Positions 1-11,347 of a stretch of DNA of 11,347 nt are shown here, piece by piece. The notes under the pieces were generated by a model. The model searched no databases. It was not told where the DNA came from and saw only the letters and a program-made list of their open reading frames with translations. Position numbers and translations under genes: made by a program. Each line of letters begins with the position of its first letter. Position 1 is the stretch's first letter. The DNA lies in assembly GCA_040380025.1 (NCBI GenBank), contig JBEIJY010000042.1, positions 1 to 11,347 of the forward strand, in the 5' to 3' direction. This DNA comes from Bdellovibrionales bacterium (lineage in GTDB: Bacteria; Bdellovibrionota; UBA1018; CAIMNF01).

Positions 1-181
1 GTGTTCCTGTTCTGTATGGTGTTTCGGGCATGGGGATGGGTAACATAAAGGTTTTGCCGACTCTCGCGAGCCAGGATGGCGAAAGCGAGGCCGGAGGACC
101 CGGCTCGGAGGCAAAACCTTTTTGTTTCCCAGCCCCTTTCCCAAACCACGGTACTGGGTCAAGAACACGCAAAGGGGGCAG
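1..181. repeat. Nested palindromic intergenic repeat, copy 1 (left end cut by window edge)
   Basis: Right arm 113-181 (aaaacctttttgtttcccagcccctttcccaaaccacggtac...caaagggggcag) matches 4537-4605 with 3 substitutions. Left arm 1-55 aligns to 4424-4478. Core 56-112 is shared with copies 2 and 3. Confidence 0.93.
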
Positions 182-198
182 ATCGCCAGTCACACCGG

Positions 199-227
199 TT
201 GCAAGCATCCCTTGAGTTCGATAACGT
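199..227 (+). promoter_or_regulatory. Putative sigma70 promoter of the thiolase gene (TTGCAA-N17-TAACGT), likely leaderless transcript
   Basis: TTGCAA at 199-204, 17-nt spacer, TAACGT at 222-227. ATG follows 7 nt later at 235 with no Shine-Dalgarno. Confidence 0.55.
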
Positions 228-234
228 CGAAACC

Positions 235-1416
235 ATGAGTAATGACGTCGTGGTGGCAGGATTTGCAAGGACTCCGTTTGGCAGTTTTCAGGGAGCGTTG
301 GCCTCTGTGCCCGCCCCGAAGCTCGGGGCGCACGCGATTCGCGAGGCGCTCGCGCGTGCCGGAGTGCGGCCGGATCAAGTGTCCGAGGTGATTTTCGGCA
401 ATGTTCTGACCGGAGGAGTCGGGCAGGCCCCGGCCCGTCAGGCCATGATTCATGCGGGCATTCCCGACTCGGTGCCGGCCCTGACGATCAACAAGGTTTG
501 TGGAAGCGGCATGAAAGCGATCATGCTCGGGGTTCAGTCGATCCGCACGGGCGAGAGCGAAATCGTCGTCGCGGGCGGGCAGGAGAGCATGTCGAACGCG
601 CCGTACCTGATGCCCGCCGCGCGGAACGGGTTCCGGATGGGGAACGCCCAGGTCATCGATGGCATGATCCACGACGGCCTTTGGGATCCGTACCAGAACC
701 GCCACATGGGGAACTTCGGTGAACTCTGCGCACGCGAGATCCACTTTACCCGCGAGGAGCAGGATGAGTTCGCGGCCGAAAGCTTCCGTCGCGCCATCGC
801 TGCACAGAACGAGAATTGCTTCGCATCCGAGATCGCGTCTTTTTCGGTGCCCGGCCAAAAAGGCGCCGCCGTCGTCATCGAGCACGACGAGGGTCCGTCG
901 AAAGTGAAATTCGACCGGATTCCGACCCTGAAGCCGGTGTTTGATCCGGCGGGAACGATCACCGCCGCAAACGCATCGACGATCAATGACGGAGCGGCGG
1001 CGCTGGTTCTTGCGCCCGCCGATCGCGTGGCGGCTCTGGGCTTGAAGCCCCTGGCACGAATCGTTTCGCAGGCAACCCATGCGCAGGAGCCCGCCTGGTT
1101 CACCACCGCGCCCGCGGGTGCCATGAAGAAAGCGCTCGAGAAGGCATCCTGGAGCGTGAAGGACGTGGACCTGTTCGAAGTGAACGAGGCGTTCGCCGTG
1201 GTGGCGATGGCCGCACAAAAAGAACTCGGAATCCCCCGCGAGAAATTGAATGTCTGGGGCGGGGCGATCAGCATCGGTCACCCGATCGGCGCATCCGGCG
1301 CCCGCATTGTGATGACGCTGATTTCTGCCCTTCGGGCCCGCGGAAAAAAACGGGGCCTTGCCGGAATCTGCATCGGCGGGGGCGAGGCCACCGCGATCGC
1401 GGTGGAGATCCTCTGA
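235..1416 (+). CDS. atoB: Acetyl-CoA C-acetyltransferase (thiolase), 393 aa
   Basis: Starts MSNDVVVAGFARTPFG. Contains the active-site motifs INKVCGSG, NEAF, GHPIGASG and CIGGG. The ORF-track extension from 76 runs through the repeat and is not thiolase-like. Confidence 0.95.
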   Translation: MSNDVVVAGFARTPFGSFQGALASVPAPKLGAHAIREALARAGVRPDQVSEVIFGNVLTGGVGQAPARQAMIHAGIPDSVPALTINKVCGSGMKAIMLGVQSIRTGESEIVVAGGQESMSNAPYLMPAARNGFRMGNAQVIDGMIHDGLWDPYQNRHMGNFGELCAREIHFTREEQDEFAAESFRRAIAAQNENCFASEIASFSVPGQKGAAVVIEHDEGPSKVKFDRIPTLKPVFDPAGTITAANASTINDGAAALVLAPADRVAALGLKPLARIVSQATHAQEPAWFTTAPAGAMKKALEKASWSVKDVDLFEVNEAFAVVAMAAQKELGIPREKLNVWGGAISIGHPIGASGARIVMTLISALRARGKKRGLAGICIGGGEATAIAVEIL

Positions 1417-2984
1417 ACATCAGATTCGGAATCGCGGTTTCGTTTTTGGTTTTGATTGTGCCGTTTGCGCTGGTTGCGCCCTCTGCTTCGGTCGAGGCAA
1501 AAACCCTGCACATGCACCTCGTCGATGCGCCGGCCGTGTTCGACTGGAACGGCGCTGTTGCGAATCCAGAGGCTCCGGTCGTACACCTGATCGGAGAAAG
1601 CTTGTACCGATTCCGGCCCGGCACCGGCAAACCCGTTCCGGCACTCGCCGAGTCCGTTCAAAAATCAAAAGACCTTCGGAAGTACACCTTCACCCTGCGA
1701 AAAGACGCGCGCTGGTCGGACGGGCGTCCGGTGGTCGCGCAAGATTTCGTCGATTCATGGATTCGCCTGCTCTCACCCCAGTCCGCATCATTGTACGCGT
1801 ATTACCTGTTCGACATCGAAGGTGCGCGTGAGTTTCACACGAAGCCCGGAGGCAACCCCTCGATGGTGGGAATTTCGGCCGAAGGGGAGCGCACTCTGGT
1901 GGTCAGGTTGCGGGAGCCGGTTCCGGATTGGGAACAGGTTCCCACGTTCTGGCCCACGTTTCCCGTCCGGAAGGACCTGATCGAGAAACTCGGGGAGCGG
2001 GCGTTCCGTCCCGGAGTTCTGCATTCGAGCGGCCCGTTCGTGCTCGAGAGCTTCGAGCCAGGGAAGAAGCTCGTTCTGCTGAAAAATCGGTTTTACTCGC
2101 GTGCAAAGACCAATCTCGACCGGATCGAGATCGATTTCGATCAGGATCTAGAGCGGGCGTATTCCCGCTACCGATCCGGTTTTTATCCGTTCTTGCAGTT
2201 TTTTCCCTGCGACAAGGTCGCGGGTCATGCAAAAAAAGGCGATCTCCTCCAGCCACCCCTGCATCGGAGCCATCTGCTGATCGCGAATGCAAAGAAGTAT
2301 CCGATGACGATCCGGGATTTTCGTGCGGCGATCATGATGGCGGTCAATCCGGTCGAGCTGAATCGCGGCTGTGAGGGGCGGTTTTCGCGCGCGAGCGGAA
2401 TGATCCCGCCGCCGCTTCCGGGAGCGACCGAAGAGGTGGTCGCGAAACCCGATCCGACCGAGGCCGCCCGGAGGCTCGAGCGATCGGGTGTGGTGGTCTC
2501 AACCAAGCTGAGGCTCCGGATCCTGACGCGATCGGGAGAGTCGTTCGAGAGCTTCGGCCGGAAGATCGAGGAGCAGCTCCGGAAGACGCTCGGTGTCGAG
2601 GTCGAGCTTCTGGCATTGAGTCCGGGAGAGTTCGGCGGCTTTGCCGGTTTGAGTGATTATGATCTGATTCTGTCATACTGGAACGCGAAGATCCCGAGTG
2701 CGCGGGATTTTTTGTTCCCCCACAGCGGGCAGGCAAAGAACAGCAGACTCCGGTTTGACAGCGCCATTTATGACGAGCTGGTCGACCGGCTCCGGATCAC
2801 CGGCGGAGGGAAGGCGGAGGCCGCAACGATCCGGAAGGCGCAGGAGGAATATGTGCGGAACGAGTTTGTGATCCTTCCTCTTGCGAACGAGAAGGCCACG
2901 GTCCTTCGGAGCCGGAAGATCCGCAATCTTTCGTTCCATTTCATGGGGTTTCCGCTCCTGGACGACGTGATCCTCGAGGACTGA
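1413..2984 (+). CDS. Peptide/nickel ABC transporter substrate-binding protein (SBP family 5, OppA/DppA-like)
   Basis: Family-5 signatures PALAES...YTFTLRKDARWSDGRPVVAQDFVDSW and SGPFVL, with an N-terminal signal peptide. First canonical start is TTG at 1446. An in-frame CTG at 1413 gives a complete signal peptide (see findings). Confidence 0.88.
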   Translation: MNIRFGIAVSFLVLIVPFALVAPSASVEAKTLHMHLVDAPAVFDWNGAVANPEAPVVHLIGESLYRFRPGTGKPVPALAESVQKSKDLRKYTFTLRKDARWSDGRPVVAQDFVDSWIRLLSPQSASLYAYYLFDIEGAREFHTKPGGNPSMVGISAEGERTLVVRLREPVPDWEQVPTFWPTFPVRKDLIEKLGERAFRPGVLHSSGPFVLESFEPGKKLVLLKNRFYSRAKTNLDRIEIDFDQDLERAYSRYRSGFYPFLQFFPCDKVAGHAKKGDLLQPPLHRSHLLIANAKKYPMTIRDFRAAIMMAVNPVELNRGCEGRFSRASGMIPPPLPGATEEVVAKPDPTEAARRLERSGVVVSTKLRLRILTRSGESFESFGRKIEEQLRKTLGVEVELLALSPGEFGGFAGLSDYDLILSYWNAKIPSARDFLFPHSGQAKNSRLRFDSAIYDELVDRLRITGGGKAEAATIRKAQEEYVRNEFVILPLANEKATVLRSRKIRNLSFHFMGFPLLDDVILED

Positions 2985-3024
2985 CCCGGTTTACAAACCC
3001 CCGCGACTGTGTGAGCGTATCGCC

Positions 3025-3741
3025 ATGAAACACGGCATGAACAAGGTGGTTTCGGGGCCCGACGAAGCGGTCCACGATATTTTTGACGGGGCGGTCCTGA
3101 CCATGGGCGGGTTCGGACTCTGCGGGATTCCCGAGAACAGCATCGCGGCGCTGGTCCGCAAGGGCGTGCGGAATCTGACCTGCGTCTCGAACAATGCCGG
3201 AGTCGACGGCTTCGGCATCGGGCTCATGCTCGAAAAGAAACAAGTGAAGAAAATGATCTCGAGCTATGTCGGCGAGAACAAGCTGTTCGAACAGCTGGTG
3301 CTTTCGAGCGAACTGGAGCTCGAATTCGCGCCGCAGGGAACGCTCGCCGAACGTCTGCGTGCGGGCGGGGCTGGAATTCCGGCGTTTTATACCCCGACCG
3401 GAGCGGGCACGCTGATCGCCGAAGGCAAGGAAGAGCGGGATTTCGGCGGAAGAAAATACATTCTCGAGAAAGGCATCGTCGGGGATTTCGGCATCGTGAA
3501 GGCCTGGAAGGGCGATGCGATGGGGAATCTGGTTTTTCGCAAGACCTCGCGCAATTTCAATCCGCTTTGCGCGATGGCCGGGAAGATCACGATCGTCGAG
3601 GTCGAGGAGCTCGTGCCCGTGGGGGCGATCGATCCGGACCAGGTGCACTTGCCGGGTGTGTACGTGCACCGGATTTTCCAGGGTCGGAACTACGAAAAAC
3701 GGATCGAGCGCCGCGTGCTTTCGTCGGGAGGTGCATCATGA
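3025..3741 (+). CDS. scoA: 3-oxoacid (succinyl-CoA:acetoacetate) CoA-transferase subunit A
   Basis: Motifs [43 protein letters not shown] and RNFNP. Alternative start ATG at 3037 (MNKV). Confidence 0.93.
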
Positions 3742-4394
3742 GTCTGAGTCGCGAACAGATCGCCATGCGGATCGCGCAAGAGCTTCGGGACGGGTACTAT
3801 GTGAATCTCGGCATCGGGATTCCCACCCTGGTCGCGAATTACATTCCGAAGGGCATCGAGGTGGTGCTCCAGAGCGAGAACGGGATTCTCGGGCTCGGAC
3901 CGTATCCGACCGAGGCGCAGGTGGATCCCGATTTGATCAATGCCGGAAAAGAAACTGTCACGGTGATTCCCGGAGCCGCGTTTTTTTCGAGTGCGGATTC
4001 GTTTGCGATGATCCGGGCCGGAAAAATCGATCTTACGGTGCTTGGCGCGATGGAGGTCGATCAGAACGGCGATCTTGCGAATTGGATGATCCCGGGAAAA
4101 CTCGTGAAGGGCATGGGCGGGGCGATGGATCTCGTGGCCGGCGCGAAGCGTGTGGTCGTGGCGATGCAGCATGTTTCGAAGGACGGAAAAAGCAAGGTGC
4201 TGAAGAAGTGTCAGCTTCCGCTCACCGGGCAAAAGTGCGTGAACCGGATTGTCTCGGAGCTCGCGGTGATCGACGTGACCCCGCAGGGCCTGCGGCTTGT
4301 GGAGCGCGCGCCCGGCGTGAGCGTCGAGCAGATCGTGAAATCGACCGAGGCGGAGCTGCTCATCGAGGGCGAAATTCCCGAGATGAAGCTTTGA
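3738..4394 (+). CDS. scoB: 3-oxoacid CoA-transferase subunit B, 218 aa
   Basis: Motifs [16 protein letters not shown] (catalytic Glu) and [13 protein letters not shown] overlap with the subunit A stop at 3738-3741. Confidence 0.94.
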
Positions 4395-4406
4395 TTGCAA
4401 ATTACC

Positions 4407-4609
4407 CAAACTGCCCCCTTTGAGTGTTCCTGATCAGTACGGTGTTTCGGGAAAGGGGCTGGGAAACAAAAAGGTTTTTTCCTCCGAGCCGGATCCTCCG
4501 GCCTCGCTCTCGCCATCGTGGCTCGCGAGAGTCGGCAAAACCTTTTTGTTTCCCAGCCCCTTTCCCAAACCACGGTACCGGGTCAAGCACACTCAAAGGG
4601 GGCAGTTTG
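4407..4609. repeat. Nested palindromic intergenic repeat, copy 2 (complete, 203 bp), between convergent genes
   Basis: Perfect 21-bp outer inverted repeat caaactgccccctttgagtgt (4407-4427 / 4589-4609), an imperfect middle stem, a perfect 30-bp inner inverted repeat gggaaaggggctgggaaacaaaaaggtttt (4449-4478 / 4537-4566), and a 58-nt core at 4479-4536. Confidence 0.96.
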
Positions 4610-4621
4610 CAGTTCGTATCC

Positions 4622-5566
4622 TCAAAGCGGCCAACGGTGTTGCACCGAGAGCGCGACACTCCGGCTCAGGCTCACATTCTGTGCCGGACCCATCAGGGTT
4701 TGGTCAGTGTAAGCGAGTCCGAGCGACCATTCATCACTGAGCATGTATCCCGCCTGAATCGAGGTATTCCAAGCGAGTTGAGGCTCCGAGACCGATCGAA
4801 TGTCGCCCGTGGTTTCCATGCTTCCCTCGAACACCGGCGACAGGCTCGCTCCGAACCGGAAGCTTCCGCCGCCCGGACTCCAGCCCGCACCCACTAGGGC
4901 GGTTCCCCCGAAGGAGGGCACGACCTCGAGATTCGCTCCGGCCTCGGTCACCACCGAGCGGGGGAGCGAGCGGTGCGCCTCGAAGGTCAGAATGAAATCA
5001 AAATCCGAGATCGCCTTCACGAAGACCATTCCGGCACCGATGGTCGTGAAACCCCGTCCCCGGGAATCAATCTGAAACGGCTCGATCGAATCGTAGGTGG
5101 AGGGTCCCGTGGGAAGGGTCACCTGCAAAAACGCAAAGCCCTTCGGACGGAAGCGGGAGTAGGTGTAGTCGGGCATCACCTCATAGGCGAAATCGAAAAG
5201 TACGTCTCCGGGGCCGGAGGCCGTGGTGTAGATCTCGGGAGTATCGATCGCGCGCGAGACGATCGGAATGCTCGCACCGATCTGTCCGCGGTCGAAAATG
5301 CGATAGGCGCCGGAGACATTGAGCACGCTCAGGGACTCATCGTCATCGGCCGCCCGGAAAACAGGAAGCCCCGTTGCGGGCGCATCACCGATGATCATCC
5401 CTCGCGAAACGCTTGCCTGGATCTGGGCCCGATCATCTCCGGTGATCAGGTTCGGAATTGCAGAGCCTCCGCCGCAACAGGGCGCGGCCCGGGCCGGTAA
5501 ACCATCGAAAAAACAAACAAGAAGAAATGCGAGGGCAAAAAAGACCCTAAATCTTGACGGGCACAA
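4622..5566 (-). CDS. Secreted hypothetical protein, putative outer-membrane beta-barrel/transporter with N-terminal CCGGG motif
   Basis: Signal peptide ending ARA followed by APCCGGG. Alternating amphipathic beta segments, a 'GPGD' segment and 'LPTG'. C-terminus SVALSVQHRWPL resembles a barrel beta-signal. Overlaps the upstream gene by 20 nt. Confidence 0.7.
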   Translation of the reverse strand: MCPSRFRVFFALAFLLVCFFDGLPARAAPCCGGGSAIPNLITGDDRAQIQASVSRGMIIGDAPATGLPVFRAADDDESLSVLNVSGAYRIFDRGQIGASIPIVSRAIDTPEIYTTASGPGDVLFDFAYEVMPDYTYSRFRPKGFAFLQVTLPTGPSTYDSIEPFQIDSRGRGFTTIGAGMVFVKAISDFDFILTFEAHRSLPRSVVTEAGANLEVVPSFGGTALVGAGWSPGGGSFRFGASLSPVFEGSMETTGDIRSVSEPQLAWNTSIQAGYMLSDEWSLGLAYTDQTLMGPAQNVSLSRSVALSVQHRWPL

Positions 5567-6068
5567 CTGCTTCTTCCACGACGGTACTGCCGTCCTTCAG
5601 CTGGACGTGGACCTCCCAAGGCCCCGGCATCACGAAAAAAACGTTCTTCGATTCGTACTGTCCGGGAAGTGCCGCTCCGTTCGCATCGGTCTTCGGAGTC
5701 AGGGTTACGGGCGAAGAACCGTGATTCATGCTTTTCATCCAAAGCAGAAGGAAAGGGATCTTAGGGGGTGTTGCGAAGGGACCGACGGGCGAGCCTCCGG
5801 TTTTTTTCCAGAACTTGAGCCCGACCGAGAGCAACTGATTCGCCCGGAGCGAGGATTTCCATTCGAGGCTCGCGCAAAATCCGGCTTTCGGGAAGTCGAT
5901 GGGGCAGGCGCCGGCATCGGCTTCGTTCTCTTCGGTTTCAAACTCCTCCGATGCCAGAACCTCTTCGGCGTTTTCGTGATGAAGAATGGGCGATGCGCCG
6001 CAAGCCGTCTGGAACAAAAATGCGATCATGATCAGGAAAAGGGGGGATTTTTGGTGCAAGAGGTTCAT
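5547..6068 (-). CDS. Lipoprotein with YtkA/FixH-like Ig-fold domain
   Basis: Lipobox-like FQTA-C, Met/His motif WMKSMNHGSSP, and the YtkA-type C-terminal pattern GQY...FVMPGPWEVHV. ATGA-coupled to the upstream redoxin. Confidence 0.72.
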   Translation of the reverse strand: MNLLHQKSPLFLIMIAFLFQTACGASPILHHENAEEVLASEEFETEENEADAGACPIDFPKAGFCASLEWKSSLRANQLLSVGLKFWKKTGGSPVGPFATPPKIPFLLLWMKSMNHGSSPVTLTPKTDANGAALPGQYESKNVFFVMPGPWEVHVQLKDGSTVVEEAVVPVKI

Positions 6069-6625
6069 GGGGTTTCCTTTCGTTTGATGATGCAGCCGAG
6101 TGTCCGGACCACCGAAGGATCGGGTTTTCGTCCTTCTTTGAGCGCGATCAGCGCGTCTTTCAGGTGGTGCCGTTCGGCCTTGGTTGCGGTGTGGCTGTCG
6201 TCCACCCCGCCTTGAAACACGATTTCTCCCCGCGGATCGAGCACAAACGCGTGGGGGGTTTTGTAGGCGCCGAGCTCATCGGCGAGTTTGGAGCCCGGAT
6301 CCCGCAAAACCGGGAAGGGGAGTTTTGCTGACTGAAAATGTGCTCGCACCAAAGATTCCGGTTCGTCGCCGTTTGAGTGAATCCCGAGGAACTGGAACCC
6401 CTGCCCCGAGAACTCGCGATACAGGTTCGCAAGCACGGGCTCGTGGCTCGCCGAGCACGGGCACTTGGCCGAAAGAAAGAGCAATACGGTACCCCGTTTG
6501 GCCGCCGAAGGTTTGATCGACACCCCTTCGCCGAGCGCGCCCTTGCCCGAAAACAAAGAGGGCACGGCAAAGGCTGTTCCGGCATGGACAAATGCAAAAA
6601 GAAGAAGAATCCGGGTCGCACTCAT
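6065..6625 (-). CDS. Secreted thioredoxin-fold redoxin (AhpC/TSA-like family), 186 aa
   Basis: Signal peptide (AFA), FLSAKCPCS active-site region, FLGIHSN, FPVLRD, TPHAFV, GGVDD and C-terminal GCII. ATG at 6625 is preferred over GTG at 6634. Confidence 0.85.
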   Translation of the reverse strand: MSATRILLLFAFVHAGTAFAVPSLFSGKGALGEGVSIKPSAAKRGTVLLFLSAKCPCSASHEPVLANLYREFSGQGFQFLGIHSNGDEPESLVRAHFQSAKLPFPVLRDPGSKLADELGAYKTPHAFVLDPRGEIVFQGGVDDSHTATKAERHHLKDALIALKEGRKPDPSVVRTLGCIIKRKETP

Positions 6626-6636
6626 GGAGAGCACCT

Positions 6637-6678
6637 GTGTTAACAGGTTTGACTGAATAAGTCAACTGATCGAGTCAG
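6637..6678 (-). promoter_or_regulatory. Putative promoter of the redoxin operon overlapped by a palindromic operator
   Basis: Minus strand reads TTGACT (6665-6660), N17, then TAACAC (6642-6637) preceded by TGn. Palindrome TTGACT-gaata-AGTCAA at 6649-6665, with a second degenerate site at 6662-6678. Confidence 0.55.
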
Positions 6679-6692
6679 CAAACAGAGCCAAT

Positions 6693-6885
6693 TGCCCCCT
6701 TTGATTGTGCTTGATTCAGGAGCGGGATGGGGAGAGGGGGTTGGAATCATTCTATTTTTGCCGACTCTCGCGAGCGCGTGACGCGCGAAAGCGAGGCCGC
6801 ACGACGCGGCTCGGAGGTAAAAATAGAATGATTCCAACCCCCTCTCCCCATCCCGCTCATTAAAAAAGCACAATCAAAGGGGGCA
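6693..6885. repeat. Nested palindromic intergenic repeat, copy 3 (complete, divergent arm type)
   Basis: Perfect 20-bp outer inverted repeat tgccccctttgattgtgctt (6693-6712 / 6866-6885), 7-nt unpaired spacers, a perfect 40-bp inner inverted repeat (6720-6759 / 6819-6858), and a 59-nt core at 6760-6818 homologous to the copy 1 core. Confidence 0.96.
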
Positions 6886-6895
6886 GTTTATCGTT

Positions 6896-8257
6896 TCAAA
6901 ATCCGAACACTTCTAAAACTTTAAGGTGAATCGCAAGCAAGGCGAGGCATCCCGCGCTCAGGGGCGCGATCAAAAAGAACAGCTCTTTCTCGCTCAGCCG
7001 GTCTTGCAGTAGGGTTTTCATGGCAATGATCGATTGGAACGCAAGCTGGACGCCGATGGCGCTTCCTGCTCCGAGCGCGACAAAATTCACGGGGTCCACC
7101 ACTTTCGAGAGCAGCAGATTCGCCATGGTCGAGGTGCCCACGAACACGCTTCCGAGCCAGCCAAGCAGGGGTGCCCCGTGGTCGAGGAGTGGCGCCGGAA
7201 TCGCGCGGGTCAGGAGCTCAAGCCCTCCGTTCGCGCGAAGCTGTTGCACGAGGAAGGTCATGCAAAACAGGACCGCAAGCGTGCGGCGCGAGCGCTCCAG
7301 GGTGTCGCGAAAGAGCGTTTTCCAGCCAAGGGCGGGATGCGCGAGCCGGATCATCGCCCCGAATGCCAAAAACACGAGGCCCGGGTTGAACACGCGGATG
7401 CGCGTTCCCGGAATCGTCTCGTCCATGAAGATCTGCTTTCCGATCCACATGCACACCAAGAGGAGCCCATAGATCGCGATTCCCTTCCGTTCGGGGCGGT
7501 TCTTCCGCCAGCCTTCTCCGAAAAAAATCCGGGCGCTCCAGATGCCGTACCCGAAGGTGAAGAACGCAGGCCCGAGCGTTGCCAGTTCCGGGCCGTGGTG
7601 TGCAAAGGGAATTCCCGTCCCCGCATAAACGAGACTAAGCGAGAGCGTCCAGAGCACCTCGCGAAGGCCTGGTTTTTTATCGATGAGCACCAGAGCCAGG
7701 AGAGGCGAGGCGAACACGAAGGGGCTCATGGCGTAGAACACGCCCAGAGTCGGATCGGCGTCGGGGAACCCGAGGCGGGTCGGGGTTCCGAGTGCCCCGA
7801 AGGGAATCCCGATGATGAAGCAAGTGATCGGAAGAAGCGCGCACAGGCGCGGTTCGAACTGAAGCGCGATCAGGATCGGCGCAATCACTAAAAGAGGCGT
7901 CCCGAATCCGCTCGAGCCTTCCACAAGAAGAGTCAGCGGAAACGCCACGAGCACTCCCTGAATCGAGCGGCGCGAGGAGATCCCGCGGATCAGCCGGGCA
8001 AGCGAGTCCACGATGCCGGACTTGCGGGCGGCCTCCAAAAAAAAGAAGGCACCGACGAGAATGAGTCCGATCTCGGTCATCATCTCGAGGGTTTTTTGAA
8101 GGGCGAGATTCCAGACCTCCTGGGAAGCATGAAACACCGTCTGGGTCAGGACGGTCCCCGTCAAGAGCGATAAAAACGCCGAATAGGTGAGGGGGAGCCG
8201 AAGCCCGGCAAAGCAGAGGAAGAGGACGGCAAAAGGGATGAGCGCTGAGAAAGACAT
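6896..8257 (-). CDS. L-lactate/glycolate permease family (LctP/LldP-like) transporter, 453 aa
   Basis: Highly hydrophobic multi-pass membrane protein with LldP-type motifs EGSSGFGTP, PFGALGTP and GWLGSVFVGTSTMANLL. Shorter and more divergent than typical LldP. Confidence 0.8.
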   Translation of the reverse strand: MSFSALIPFAVLFLCFAGLRLPLTYSAFLSLLTGTVLTQTVFHASQEVWNLALQKTLEMMTEIGLILVGAFFFLEAARKSGIVDSLARLIRGISSRRSIQGVLVAFPLTLLVEGSSGFGTPLLVIAPILIALQFEPRLCALLPITCFIIGIPFGALGTPTRLGFPDADPTLGVFYAMSPFVFASPLLALVLIDKKPGLREVLWTLSLSLVYAGTGIPFAHHGPELATLGPAFFTFGYGIWSARIFFGEGWRKNRPERKGIAIYGLLLVCMWIGKQIFMDETIPGTRIRVFNPGLVFLAFGAMIRLAHPALGWKTLFRDTLERSRRTLAVLFCMTFLVQQLRANGGLELLTRAIPAPLLDHGAPLLGWLGSVFVGTSTMANLLLSKVVDPVNFVALGAGSAIGVQLAFQSIIAMKTLLQDRLSEKELFFLIAPLSAGCLALLAIHLKVLEVFGF

Positions 8258-8379
8258 CGGGGTTCTCGATTCGGTTCTAAGATGATTGGCAACAAACTAT
8301 GTTGAATTGACCTTGGTTTCAATCGGGATCATGGGGAAGAGCAGGGAATGGGCGGGCGCTCCCACTCCATTCCCCGCCC

Positions 8380-8408
8380 TTCCCAAGAGCATCCTCCTTG
8401 CGTACTAT
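8380..8408 (+). promoter_or_regulatory. Putative sigma70 promoter (TTCCCA-N17-TACTAT) directly abutting the GTG start, likely leaderless
   Basis: TTCCCA at 8380-8385, TACTAT at 8403-8408, and GTG at 8415 after a 6-nt gap. Confidence 0.5.
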
Positions 8409-8414
8409 CAGGGG

Positions 8415-9806
8415 GTGAGCGCATCTTTTCTTGAGCGATTAAAAGCAGAATTGGGCCCTGAGTCGGTTTCGACCGATCCAAACGACCTCAAAACCTTCGG
8501 ACGCGACTGGACCAAGTCCGTCGAGCCGGCCCCCCTTGCGGTGTGCTTTCCGCGCTCCACCGGGGAGGTCTCGCGGGTCATGGCCCTTTGCTCGTCCCAC
8601 CAGATCGCCGTCGTTCCCTCGGGCGGGCGCACGGGGCTTGCCGGCGGTGCGGTTGCGGCGCGGGGCGAGCTCGTGGTTTCGCTCTCAAAAATGCGCGCGA
8701 TGGGCGAGGTGGATCCCCTTGCGCTCACCGTGACGGTCGAGGCCGGAGCCGTGACCGAGGCCGTGCACGAGCACTGCAAGCCGCACGGGCTCACCTGGCC
8801 GGTTGATTTTGCCTCGAAGGGCTCCTCGACCGTGGGCGGAAATCTCGCCACCAACGCGGGCGGGGTGCGGGTGATTCGCTACGGGCTCACCCGGCAGTGG
8901 GTTCTCGGACTCACGGTGGTGCTCATGAATGGCGAGATCCTGAACCTGAACGGCTCGCTCGAAAAGAACAACACCGGCGTTGATCTCCGGCAGGTCTTCA
9001 TCGGGAGCGAGGGGATCTTGGGGATCATCACGGACGCAACGCTGAAACTCGCGCCTCTTCCCGCCGAGAGCGATGTATTTTTATTCGCGCTTCGGGATCT
9101 CTCGCAGGTTTTTGAGCTGTTCCGCGAGGTCCGGCAAAATCCCCTGATCGTGAACGCCTACGAGTGTTTCTCGGATTCCTGTCTGCAGGCGGTGCTCTCG
9201 CACCTCGGGCTTGCGAAGCCCTTCGAGAAGGCGCACGAGCAGTACGTCTTGCTCGAGGTCGAACGGCCCGCCGGAGGCGAGGGGCTTTCGGAGGAATGGC
9301 TCTCGTCGCTGTTCGAGCGTGGTGTGGTCGAGGACGCGGTCCTTGCCCAGAGTCCGGCCGAGGCCCGAAACCTATGGTCCATGCGCGAGGGGATCTCGGA
9401 GTCGCTCGCAAGCATGGGGCTCTTGCACAAGCACGACATCTCGCTTCCGATTCATCGGCTCAAGGAATTCATCGAGACCTGGTCGCGCGAGATGGCCCAG
9501 AATTACCCGGGGCTTTCGCCTTATCTTTTCGGGCACATCGGCGACGGGAACCTGCATGTGAATCTGCTGAAGCCCGAATCGATGGATGGGTCCGAGTTCA
9601 AGACTCTTTGTGCGAAAGCCGACTCCGCGATGTTCGGCTGGATCCGAAAATTCGAGGGATCCGTCTCGGCCGAGCACGGGATCGGGCTCCTGAAGCGTCA
9701 CCTGTTGCACTACTCGCGTTCGGACACCGAGATCGCGCTCATGCGGCAGATGAAGGCGGTGTTTGATCCGGCGGGGTTGTTGAATCCCGGGAAGGTCCTC
9801 CCCTAA
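8415..9806 (+). CDS. FAD-linked D-2-hydroxyacid dehydrogenase (VAO/PCMH family; D-2-hydroxyglutarate/D-lactate dehydrogenase-like), 463 aa
   Basis: Motifs GGRTGLAGGA, PVDFAS.GSS.VGGNLATNAGG..VIRYG, GSEGILGIIT, FGHIGDGNLH, SAEHGIG and DPAGLLNPGK. The GTG at 8415 fits the family N-terminus, whereas 8286-8414 looks non-coding. Confidence 0.9.
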   Translation: MSASFLERLKAELGPESVSTDPNDLKTFGRDWTKSVEPAPLAVCFPRSTGEVSRVMALCSSHQIAVVPSGGRTGLAGGAVAARGELVVSLSKMRAMGEVDPLALTVTVEAGAVTEAVHEHCKPHGLTWPVDFASKGSSTVGGNLATNAGGVRVIRYGLTRQWVLGLTVVLMNGEILNLNGSLEKNNTGVDLRQVFIGSEGILGIITDATLKLAPLPAESDVFLFALRDLSQVFELFREVRQNPLIVNAYECFSDSCLQAVLSHLGLAKPFEKAHEQYVLLEVERPAGGEGLSEEWLSSLFERGVVEDAVLAQSPAEARNLWSMREGISESLASMGLLHKHDISLPIHRLKEFIETWSREMAQNYPGLSPYLFGHIGDGNLHVNLLKPESMDGSEFKTLCAKADSAMFGWIRKFEGSVSAEHGIGLLKRHLLHYSRSDTEIALMRQMKAVFDPAGLLNPGKVLP

Positions 9807-9857
9807 CTGCCCCCTTTGATCGCGCTCGTTAGAAAATCACAATGAACGGGGGCAGTT
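9805..9857. repeat. Collapsed (ends-only) member of the palindromic repeat family between convergent stop codons; possible terminator role
   Basis: Perfect 10-bp inverted repeat aactgccccc/gggggcagtt. Both halves align to the ends of copy 3 (tgccccctttgat... and ...cacaat.aa.gggggca). Inner arms and core are absent. Confidence 0.85.
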
Positions 9858-11347
9858 CAGAGGGTCTTCAGGAACTCGATCAAATCCCGTTTTTGTTCAT
9901 CCGTATACCGCTCGCTCCCGTCGCGATTCGTGAAGATCCGCTCGTAGTGCCCGGCGTTCGACATCCCCGGGCGGCGGGCATCGTACAGGTGGTCGTCCTT
10001 GTCGATCACCTTCGACCAGTGGTCGGGGGTGGCGTCTCCGAGCGGGTACCCGACACAGTTCGAGTCGAAGTCGCGCTCGCGATCAAGCACTTCGCCCGAA
10101 CGATACGTCATCGGGCGCGCGGCTGGCGGGGTCATCAGGGCGCAAAGATTCGGAATCGAGTTGTTATGAAAATACGGAAACCGTGCCCAGATCCCCTCGA
10201 GCGGCGGCGCCACATAGCCCTTTTGTTCTTCGATCACGATTCCGAATCGCTTCGAGAACTCGAGCGGATTCAGCGCAACGGCGAGCGCCCGCATTCCGAA
10301 TCGCCGGCCCGAATCGGTGCCGACGTCATAGGTCCGGGTCTTCTCGAAATAGCGCACGCGGACCGTCTCGATCAGCGGGCGATCGGGCACCTCCATCGAC
10401 CAGGCCTTCTCGTAGGTGCCGTGGCAGTGGTTGCAGTTCGTATTGAAGATCGCCTCGCCCCGCTTTGCCCGCTCCACCGAAATCAACGAGGCATCGAGAT
10501 ACGCGCTCCACTTCGGAGCCTCGGTCGCAAACACCGCCGTGGTCAGCTCCTCGACGATCGATGACTGCGTCTGGAGCCACTCCACGAGTTCGGGCAAATC
10601 GACGCCGCGGCCGATCTCGTTCCACAAAAAATTCGTAAAGATCGGATTCCCCGAGATCACGCTCGCATCCGAGAGAAACCTTGTTTTGTATTTTACATTC
10701 CACCACACGGCGGGCTTGCTGTCGGGAATGAGATCATCCAACAGCGTCGCCCGCGGCTCGGACTCGAACCTGCGATCGCGTTCGGCCCATGGGGTGGGCG
10801 CCCGGCGGGCGAGCGAGAGCGCCACCTGCGCAAGCGAGGTGTCGAGGCCCAAGGTCTCGGGGCGCTTCAGTCCGATCGAACCCATGCGGGCGCGCGAGTC
10901 GGCGTACATGGTTTTCTCGGCGCGGGTCGCGCCGGTCAGGAGCGCGAAAACCCCGGGATGGATTTTTTGAAGAGCCGATTGCCCGTGGATGAAAAACAAG
11001 TTCGCGCGCGGGAACCGATTCGTGAGTCCCAGAATCGGTCTTCCGAACAGTTGCGAAGAGTGGCAGGCGGCACAGCTCAGGGTGAACCCCGGCGCGCCGT
11101 TCCGGTTCAGGATCGAAACCCCCATCGGGTACTTCGGCCGGAGCCCGTCCCGAAACGGAATCTCTCCCTCATTGGCCGGATACTCATGGAGCCCGAGCCA
11201 TTTCCAGAAGCCCCGAAAGTCCTCAAAATCAGGACTGATCGACAAAACCCCGCGCAGGAACCGGAACAAAAGATCGCCGGGCTTGGCATCGAGGGCCTTC
11301 AAGGCCGGGCGGGCCGGAATCAAGAGGCCCGTTCCCTCGATCGGGTA
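9857..11347 (-). CDS. Dihaem c-type cytochrome of the RoxA (rubber oxygenase)/MauG/bCcP superfamily; 5' end lies outside the window
   Basis: Two CxxCH motifs (CAACH at 11060-11074 and CNHCH at 10421-10435). Also YVAPPLEGIWARFPYFHNNSIPNL and C-terminal YDARRPGMSNAGH...LIEFLKTL, typical of RoxA-like proteins. The frame is open to position 11347. Confidence 0.85.
   Translation of the reverse strand, partial: YPIEGTGLLIPARPALKALDAKPGDLLFRFLRGVLSISPDFEDFRGFWKWLGLHEYPANEGEIPFRDGLRPKYPMGVSILNRNGAPGFTLSCAACHSSQLFGRPILGLTNRFPRANLFFIHGQSALQKIHPGVFALLTGATRAEKTMYADSRARMGSIGLKRPETLGLDTSLAQVALSLARRAPTPWAERDRRFESEPRATLLDDLIPDSKPAVWWNVKYKTRFLSDASVISGNPIFTNFLWNEIGRGVDLPELVEWLQTQSSIVEELTTAVFATEAPKWSAYLDASLISVERAKRGEAIFNTNCNHCHGTYEKAWSMEVPDRPLIETVRVRYFEKTRTYDVGTDSGRRFGMRALAVALNPLEFSKRFGIVIEEQKGYVAPPLEGIWARFPYFHNNSIPNLCALMTPPAARPMTYRSGEVLDRERDFDSNCVGYPLGDATPDHWSKVIDKDDHLYDARRPGMSNAGHYERIFTNRDGSERYTDEQKRDLIEFLKTL

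Follow-up and report, generated by a model that had tools for sequence, protein, structure and literature searches.

Hairpin elements of ~200 bp in a Bdellovibrionales genome and their probable mobilisation by a resident IS1-like transposase

Introduction

What mobilises the ~200-bp palindromic repeats that recur within one contig of a Bdellovibrionales bacterium, and why do they keep a folded core? The stretch of DNA analysed here (the window) is the entire 11,347-bp contig C42 (JBEIJY010000042.1) of a 2.35-Mb, 53-contig short-read assembly (GCA_040380025.1, here G000). Within it are four elements: three hairpins of ~200 bp that bear a core, and a relic without one. [quoted passage not shown] An earlier note, made from the letters of the window, had described four copies of the repeat, all of which we found in the sequence where it had placed them, and had proposed a high-copy, non-autonomous family mobilised in trans. 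The ~110 pieces detected in the genome, together with a matching resident transposase, support this proposal. In our view, the elements very probably form a MITE family whose mobility is provided in trans by an unnamed, IS1-like transposase that resides in the same genome and has a D-D-N catalytic triad. The direct observations behind this interpretation are shared ends, some 9-bp duplications, a fixed length of ~197–199 bp, a bias toward gene 3' ends, and turnover between species. An uncatalogued repeat is thereby tied to a large, unannotated IS1-like transposase family with Asn in the triad, and, with both enzyme and substrate identified, laboratory testing becomes feasible.

Element ends and target duplications

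The elements end in nnAACTGCCCC, which matches the ends of a resident insertion sequence (IS). The first two bases are variable, CA being the commonest pair, and TG is present at positions 6–7. Two bases outside AACTG/CAGTT, a 9-bp direct repeat matching at 8 or more of 9 positions was found in 6 of 36 full copies, compared with 0.03 expected from mismatched pairs. The repeat was perfect in four of the 36 and matched at 7 or more positions in nine. When 25 settings of length and offset were compared, a clear excess was seen only at 7 bp/offset 3, 9 bp/offset 2 and 11 bp/offset 1, which represent one register. In a related genome, G002, one of three copies tested scored 8/9. Thus, the earlier statement that neither a target-site duplication nor a transposase is visible holds for the window only; genome-wide, both exist. 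Two further observations concern the duplicated target: four copies have a possible 11–13-bp register, and at one locus of genome G024 (L047, contig C17) tandem IS copies are separated by a spacer that is exactly the 9-bp duplicated target.

The resident transposase

By listing unpaired element ends in G000, we located two intact 307-aa transposase genes with nnAACTGCCC ends (C5:100088-101011 and C12:43978-44901; 63.6% identical), so that the transposase gene flanked by the same ends, which the earlier note had suggested looking for, was found twice. A third IS, collapsed in the assembly, was recovered as three left and three right ends of the nnAACTGCCC type. The C5 gene (C5:99903-101243, L033) is bracketed by two complete core-bearing elements and the C12 gene (C12:43758-45070, L034) by two coreless units with the same ends. 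Neither gene has IS ends of its own: the last codons and the stop are supplied by the terminal repeat of the right unit, and the junction between gene and mini-element falls at the same codon in both. Among the matches listed, this C-terminus occurred in one of 120 homologues, i.e., the C5 protein itself, and the element-bracketed arrangement was seen at 2 of 30 loci examined, both in G000. Since the C5 protein is 89–91% identical to fragments of the conventional third IS, the bracketed arrangement may have arisen twice. Of 41 genomes searched, 16 had homologues, which were ordinary ISs with nnAACTG(C/G/A)CC ends.

The protein has a zinc finger, a helix-turn-helix (HTH) and an RNase H fold, with the predicted triad D134-D213-N259. 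The best fold match of its structure model (pLDDT 80.9) was the ISCth4 transposase (Z 13.1, root-mean-square deviation 7.4, 246 aligned residues; Foldseek E 1.4e-5). In a profile alignment to an IS1-family protein (probability 92.5), D134, D213 and N259 fell on the D, D and E positions; N259, which aligns with the IS1 Glu, was invariant in 40 of 40 aligned sequences. The NCBIfam IS1 model scored 37.5 and 41.7 bits against a cut-off of 100, and all 30 sampled relatives matched this model, each below the cut-off. IS1 was likewise nearest, and below cut-off, across NCBIfam and ESM Atlas. Based on these sub-cut-off scores, the D-D-N alignment and the modelled fold, we call the transposase IS1-like rather than a member of IS1. 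No Pfam match was obtained for the G000 transposases, and DDE_Tnp_IS1595 was matched weakly in one of the 30 relatives (E 8e-4). Searches against plasmids and against PDB sequences gave no match. The family comprises 4030 proteins at E <= 0.001, or 2041 clusters at 50% identity; the best 120 carry no listed Pfam domain, and the nearest clusters are commonest in Bdellovibrionota.

IS1 ends start with GG and have TG at positions 6–7, and some IS1595 groups are D-D-N. The present transposase and its IS resemble the IS1 (NCBIfam NF033558) and IS1595 families in the zinc finger, HTH, RNase H-fold core, RRT/FSK-like C-terminal motif and single open reading frame (ORF), and in ends of ~22–24 bp with TG at positions 6–7 and a 9-bp duplication. 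They differ in scoring below every curated cut-off, in the third catalytic residue, and in the first two end bases, which are variable and not GG. IS1595 elements carry a DDE_Tnp_IS1595 domain, usually along with an 8-bp duplication (PMC8101967); the present transposase has no Pfam match and its duplication is 9 bp.

Of the leads offered earlier, the MITE/DDE one fits the shared IS ends and 9-bp duplications. The other, a REPIN family moved by a RAYT enzyme of the HUH/Y1 type, now appears very improbable. REPINs do share conserved length, compensatory changes and clusters beside the enzyme gene (PMC3116915), and just downstream of the one Y1-fold gene of G000 there is a coreless element. However, this sole Y1 gene reads RIHLL in place of the HUH motif HLH and lacks the Tyr; it is syntenic and element-free in the relatives G002, G010 and G013, and no core was found within ~1.5 kb of any of 20 Y1 loci fetched. 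The 9-bp duplications and IS-type ends also point to a DDE-fold enzyme. The Y1/IS200-fold gene itself (C13:34583-35185, L017) is fixed in four genomes between genes that, judged from their sequence, are tgt-like and mltA-like, and the degenerate gene possibly encodes a domesticated DNA-binding protein.

Genome-wide occurrence and anatomy

A BLAST search of G000 with the core gave 92 merged hits. When an arm profile was used in addition, ~110 element pieces were recovered, 90 of them with a core, and a reversed-genome control gave no match; 40 of the pieces are located at contig ends and may include double counts. The genome-wide count suggested in the earlier note therefore extends well beyond the few copies of the window. 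The repeats are also a cause of assembly breaks: a core lies within 260 nt of 36 of 106 contig ends.

Both ends could be recognised in 36 copies, of which 35 were 195–202 bp long. The layered outer, middle and inner pairing described before was evident, with self-paired inner arms in 47 of 52 copies having both flanks; the core, given then as 57–59 nt, measured 55–57 nt between anchors. Pairing within copies was ~0.9 for the inner arm (positions 1–35 from the core), 0.60–0.66 for the middle and ~0.8 for the outer repeat. Identity between copies was 0.88 in the core, 0.51 in the inner arm, 0.37 in the middle and 0.58 in the outer repeat, compared with 0.33 for random 30-mers. The coreless copies inspected were each unique and had the appearance of in-place deletions.

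None of 74 elements was inside a called gene. Gaps between convergent genes held 17 of 45 fully placed copies versus 287 of 1899 of all gaps (p = 1.7e-4; based on gene calls made in this analysis), and many copies were within 20 nt of a stop codon.

Copies in the window

The features of the window are given below; coordinates of copies count the two variable terminal bases outside AACTG/CAGTT.

1..185, plus strand: copy 1, left end truncated at the contig start; the right terminal repeat stops at 183 and is followed by two variable bases
57..111, plus strand: core of copy 1, type A, in which two hairpins whose loops are NGGAY-like stand on a GA/GAAA internal loop
4407..4609, minus strand: copy 2, full length, 199 bp from AACTG to CAGTT; target duplication absent (3/9)
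4409..4430, plus strand: left terminal inverted repeat of copy 2, ~22 bp, belonging to one family with the ends of the resident IS1-like element
4481..4535, minus strand: core of copy 2
4586..4607, minus strand: right terminal inverted repeat of copy 2
6688..6890, plus strand: copy 3, full length, of a different arm subfamily, with a type B core; target duplication absent (1/9)
6761..6817, plus strand: core of copy 3, type B, with loops GTGA and ACGAC and without GGA
9803..9859, no strand assigned: copy 4, a coreless end-to-end relic

Copy 4 consists of two ends only, with neither inner repeat nor core. No target duplication was found in the window copies (scores of 3/9, 1/9 and 3/9 at 9 bp). 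With regard to gene context, the earlier placement past gene 3' ends was correct for copies 2, 3 and 4. Copy 2 is located between the convergent genes for coenzyme A (CoA)-transferase B and a protein of unknown function, copy 3 is ~6 nt past the stop of the lactate permease gene lctP, and copy 4 is between convergent genes for a flavin adenine dinucleotide (FAD) oxidase and a cytochrome c, its termini contributing to the stop codons of both (9804-9806 and 9857-9859, respectively). Copy 1, instead, is ~50 nt upstream of the start of a thiolase gene. Copies 2 and 3 folded as single long hairpins (z = -15.9 and -19.5), and 0 of 200 shuffled sequences folded equally well.

Orthologous sites in relatives

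The junction between the FAD oxidase and cytochrome genes is filled in four genomes: by copy 4 in G000, by a whole IS in G002, and by a solo IS end in both G010 and G013. In both G000 and G002, the terminus provides the cytochrome gene with its stop codon, and does so in the same register. Among 30 elements fetched from G002, many share length and layout with those of G000 but carry other end sequences. These G002 MITE ends are identical over 22 nt to the IS ends of G010 and G013 (L040, L042 and L055) and differ from those of G000, which suggests that MITE ends track the local IS. G002 also has an intact ancestral copy upstream of the CoA-transferase A gene; G010 and G013 retain it in half-deleted form, and G000 and four other genomes lack it. 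From sequence comparison, it appears that copies come and go between species. The comparison of orthologous loci proposed earlier suggested that copies are not fixed, as at the CoA-transferase A site, and yielded no clean empty-and-filled pair for the window copies.

The Y-shaped core

The core forms a three-way junction of two small hairpins, mostly with NGGAY loops, plus a GA/GNNA internal loop. In an alignment of 54 sequences with 13 named pairs, 95.6% of cells were paired and double-sided changes occurred at eight pairs. Covariation was 0.448 versus 0.141 in shuffled alignments, a value reached by 0 of 500 shuffles and inflated by the relatedness of the sequences. Core and arm identity were uncorrelated (rho -0.01); for example, 66 pairs of copies with identical cores averaged 51% arm identity.

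The exact core pattern was found at 58 loci in nine assemblies, eight titled as Bdellovibrionota groups and one as 'Proteobacteria'. A covariance model, with strict filters, matched four of 150 genomes of the phylum, all within the genus, and there were 38 core matches in G002. Viral contigs searched with the core pattern and phages searched with the element gave no match.

Related cores also occur outside this family. In G041 (loci L098–L149), a related core caps hairpins of ~330 bp, whose arms are paired up to ~150 nt and which are devoid of IS-type ends. Long hairpins were also observed downstream of tRNA-Gln (C1:102085), tRNA-Arg (C26:3376), tRNA-Pro (C29:181) and tRNA-Leu (C5:23139); the first three have Y-shaped tips and similar loops, on the strand opposite to the tRNA. 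Single cores are located beside the same tRNA type in different genomes (L077 of G002 and L008 of G016; L006 of G011 and L007 of G007), with different, self-paired arms. An Rfam search of five related loci returned only tRNAs. In addition, two cores of contig C40 (near 2482-2541 and 12727-12784) are enlarged by ~57 nt, apparently by a second core-type module nested in the first hairpin.

Two alternative explanations bear on the core. The first is that the core plus stem is the true mobile unit, with a single-strand mechanism of its own, the IS ends having been captured secondarily and the IS transposase moving only some copies. Cores without IS ends (the long covarying hairpins of G041, the tRNA-side hairpins and decayed G000 copies), the two copies with a nested core-like insert, and the lack of a duplication in most copies would all fit this explanation. 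So would an excess of G-T over A-C mismatches on the core strand (38 vs 20 in G000, after removal of core-adjacent positions 1–2 and collapse of shared contexts, and 19 vs 6 in G002). However, no such bias was seen in G041 (6 vs 8) or in two smaller sets (5 vs 3 and 8 vs 4), length and ends are fixed in G000 and G002, and no candidate enzyme was found: the Y1 gene is degenerate, and a small GIY-YIG gene is adjacent to an element in only one of four orthologues. We regard this explanation as unlikely.

The second is that the main reason for keeping the copies is a role as RNA devices at gene 3' ends (a terminator, a stabiliser or a CsrA-binding pair of GGA hairpins), with pairing under selection in the transcript. 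GGA hairpins are the CsrA motif. AGGA(T/C) is present in most core loops and CsrA in all five genomes tested; the preference for convergent sites and gene 3' ends and the G-T mismatch bias also agree with this possibility. In contrast, how a core is oriented does not follow transcription (in tandem contexts, 12 are sense and 10 antisense), the expanding type B core has no GGA in either loop, and a terminator scan found no site inside any window copy. Moreover, the loss of the CoA-transferase A copy across genomes suggests that copies are lost freely. This role therefore seems quite unlikely as the main reason for which copies are kept.

Arm divergence, compensation and core flip

Inner arms are ~51% identical between copies and yet ~90% self-paired within them. 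Between nearest sister copies, 45 of 96 inner-arm differences were doubly compensated, often in blocks (counts from such pairs are not mutually independent). Copy 2 shares its outer arms with five sister copies but has its core the other way round, and the flip is visible inside the window, where copies 1 and 2 have parallel outer arms and opposite cores. Two chimeric copies, C1:133327 and C22:16954, have left and right arms from different subfamilies; they arose either by recombination through the core or by misassembly.

The conserved covarying core, the decoupling of core and arms, the compensated arms and the flip go beyond what a plain MITE would account for. We interpret the core as an older structured module captured by the MITE, and the arms and core as reshaped by arm-to-arm copying and recombination starting at the tip. 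Our best guess is that a protein binds the core, as a folded single-stranded-DNA site, and this would favour copies that keep it.

Proposed mechanism

According to the trans-mobilised MITE model, the transposase would bind the ~22-bp ends, cut two bases outside AACTG and insert with a 9-bp stagger. Where an insertion falls at or near a stop codon, it would persist because the ends supply stops. Most copies would have lost the duplication by recombination between copies or by adjacent deletion, losses of these kinds being documented for IS elements (PMC11708052). Once inserted, the 200-bp palindrome could fold back when single-stranded, and copying or recombination between the arms, from near the tip, would rewrite ~35 bp of both arms together. 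The same process may swap cores between copies and occasionally flip a core, which the MITE would carry as an older structured module.

A bolder version, which we consider rather improbable, is that the core, as a single-stranded-DNA module recognised by a protein, directs fold-back resynthesis of the stem and is required for transposition of the hairpin by the D-D-N enzyme. The bracketed transposase genes would then be immobilised helpers, the whole a REPIN/RAYT-like system built on a DDE-fold enzyme, and the tip would have recruited different end systems across Bdellovibrionota. Such palindromes would be self-correcting and flip-flopping, like hairpin telomeres.

Several observations weigh against the trans-mobilised MITE model. 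With regard to transposition, 27 of the 36 full copies, all window copies included, scored below 7/9 and looked random, and a duplication was found at only 1 of 18 IS loci having both ends and flanks readable. The MITE ends of G000 match those of the conventional third IS at only ~17 of 22 positions. The third catalytic residue of the transposase is Asn and not Glu, its score is far below the IS1 cut-off, and its activity is predicted from sequence. At the window sites, no clean pair of empty and filled sites was found, as neighbours differ in relatives at copies 2 and 3. Similarly, no strain-level empty-site joint was found in contigs from further sequencing runs, of which one (X1) may itself be the source and three have almost no coverage of the elements. 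With regard to the core, its relatives in G041 and on the single hairpins behind tRNA genes lack IS ends, which implies that it does not depend on the resident IS. With regard to the arms, a single short-read assembly is the source for both the flip and the few chimeric copies, and selection for pairing could also yield compensated changes. Finally, rare variants of the terminal repeat are seldom common to both ends (5 of 43, p = 0.02; 2 of 30, p = 0.13), which suggests that arm-to-arm copying does not reach the tips.

Comparison with known systems

The nearest parallels are MITEAba12, a MITE with the co-resident IS parent ISAba12 and a duplication in 36 of 90 copies (PMC6382973), and Chunjie of Geobacter, which has 178–235 bp, 21-bp ends and 9-bp repeats (PMC3184786, PMC10969869). 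The present family is similar in being non-coding, ~200 bp long, intergenic and stably folded, with ends common to a resident IS and a minority of copies with a 9-bp duplication. It differs, by description only in the case of Chunjie, in that the centre is more conserved than arms and ends, the arms are ~50% identical yet paired, and the core flips and shuffles. For comparison, the IS1-family element ISAba3 has 24-bp ends and an 8-bp duplication (PMC6382973).

The whole-element hairpin, conserved length, compensatory changes and repeat-flanked transposase genes without ends of their own resemble REPINs and RAYTs (PMC3116915), whereas a DDE-fold rather than HUH/Y1 enzyme, target duplications and coexisting conventional mobile IS copies set the family apart. 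Compensatory changes or a 3'-end bias at convergent genes are known for bcr1 of the Bacillus cereus group, SPRITE and ERIC (PMC3184786); these occur in unrelated hosts, and no common Y-shaped core is described in the accessible portion of that paper. The Ssn target motifs, SRM, are also oriented hairpin repeats acting as single-stranded DNA (PMC11893778). We rejected a link to the Ssn nuclease: the SRM pattern was found in 0 of 74 elements, and the small GIY-YIG gene is not consistently flanked by them. Integron attC sites, suggested by the AAC/GTT ends, were set aside, as the flanking genes are housekeeping genes and the termini can be explained by the duplications and IS ends; no search aimed at an integrase was made.

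The earlier note did not recognise a named family, and neither did we: none was found in Rfam or in the accessible texts of the literature searched, with supplements and ISfinder outside the scope. An Rfam search of the window gave sub-threshold microRNA hairpins only and no gathering-score match. The main text of a MITE catalogue (PMC11602168) has no mention of Bdellovibrio, and its supplements may list the family. Hairpin MITEs, compensatory changes (bcr1, REPINs) and the 3'-end bias (SPRITE) are already known; what the present analysis adds for this family are the 9-bp duplications, the shared-site link to an IS and the core flip.

Other features of the window

A purine/pyrimidine hairpin is located at 8331-8386, between the divergent lctP and FAD oxidase genes; it was considered as a fifth copy and ruled out, as it has no arm-profile match. 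Two minus-strand ORFs of 314 and 173 aa (4622-6068), neither of which matched Pfam, are located beside a redoxin gene. At the end of the window (9857-11347), the cytochrome c protein, whose gene converges on that for the FAD oxidase, has a RoxA-like domain match (PF21419, E 8.8e-15).

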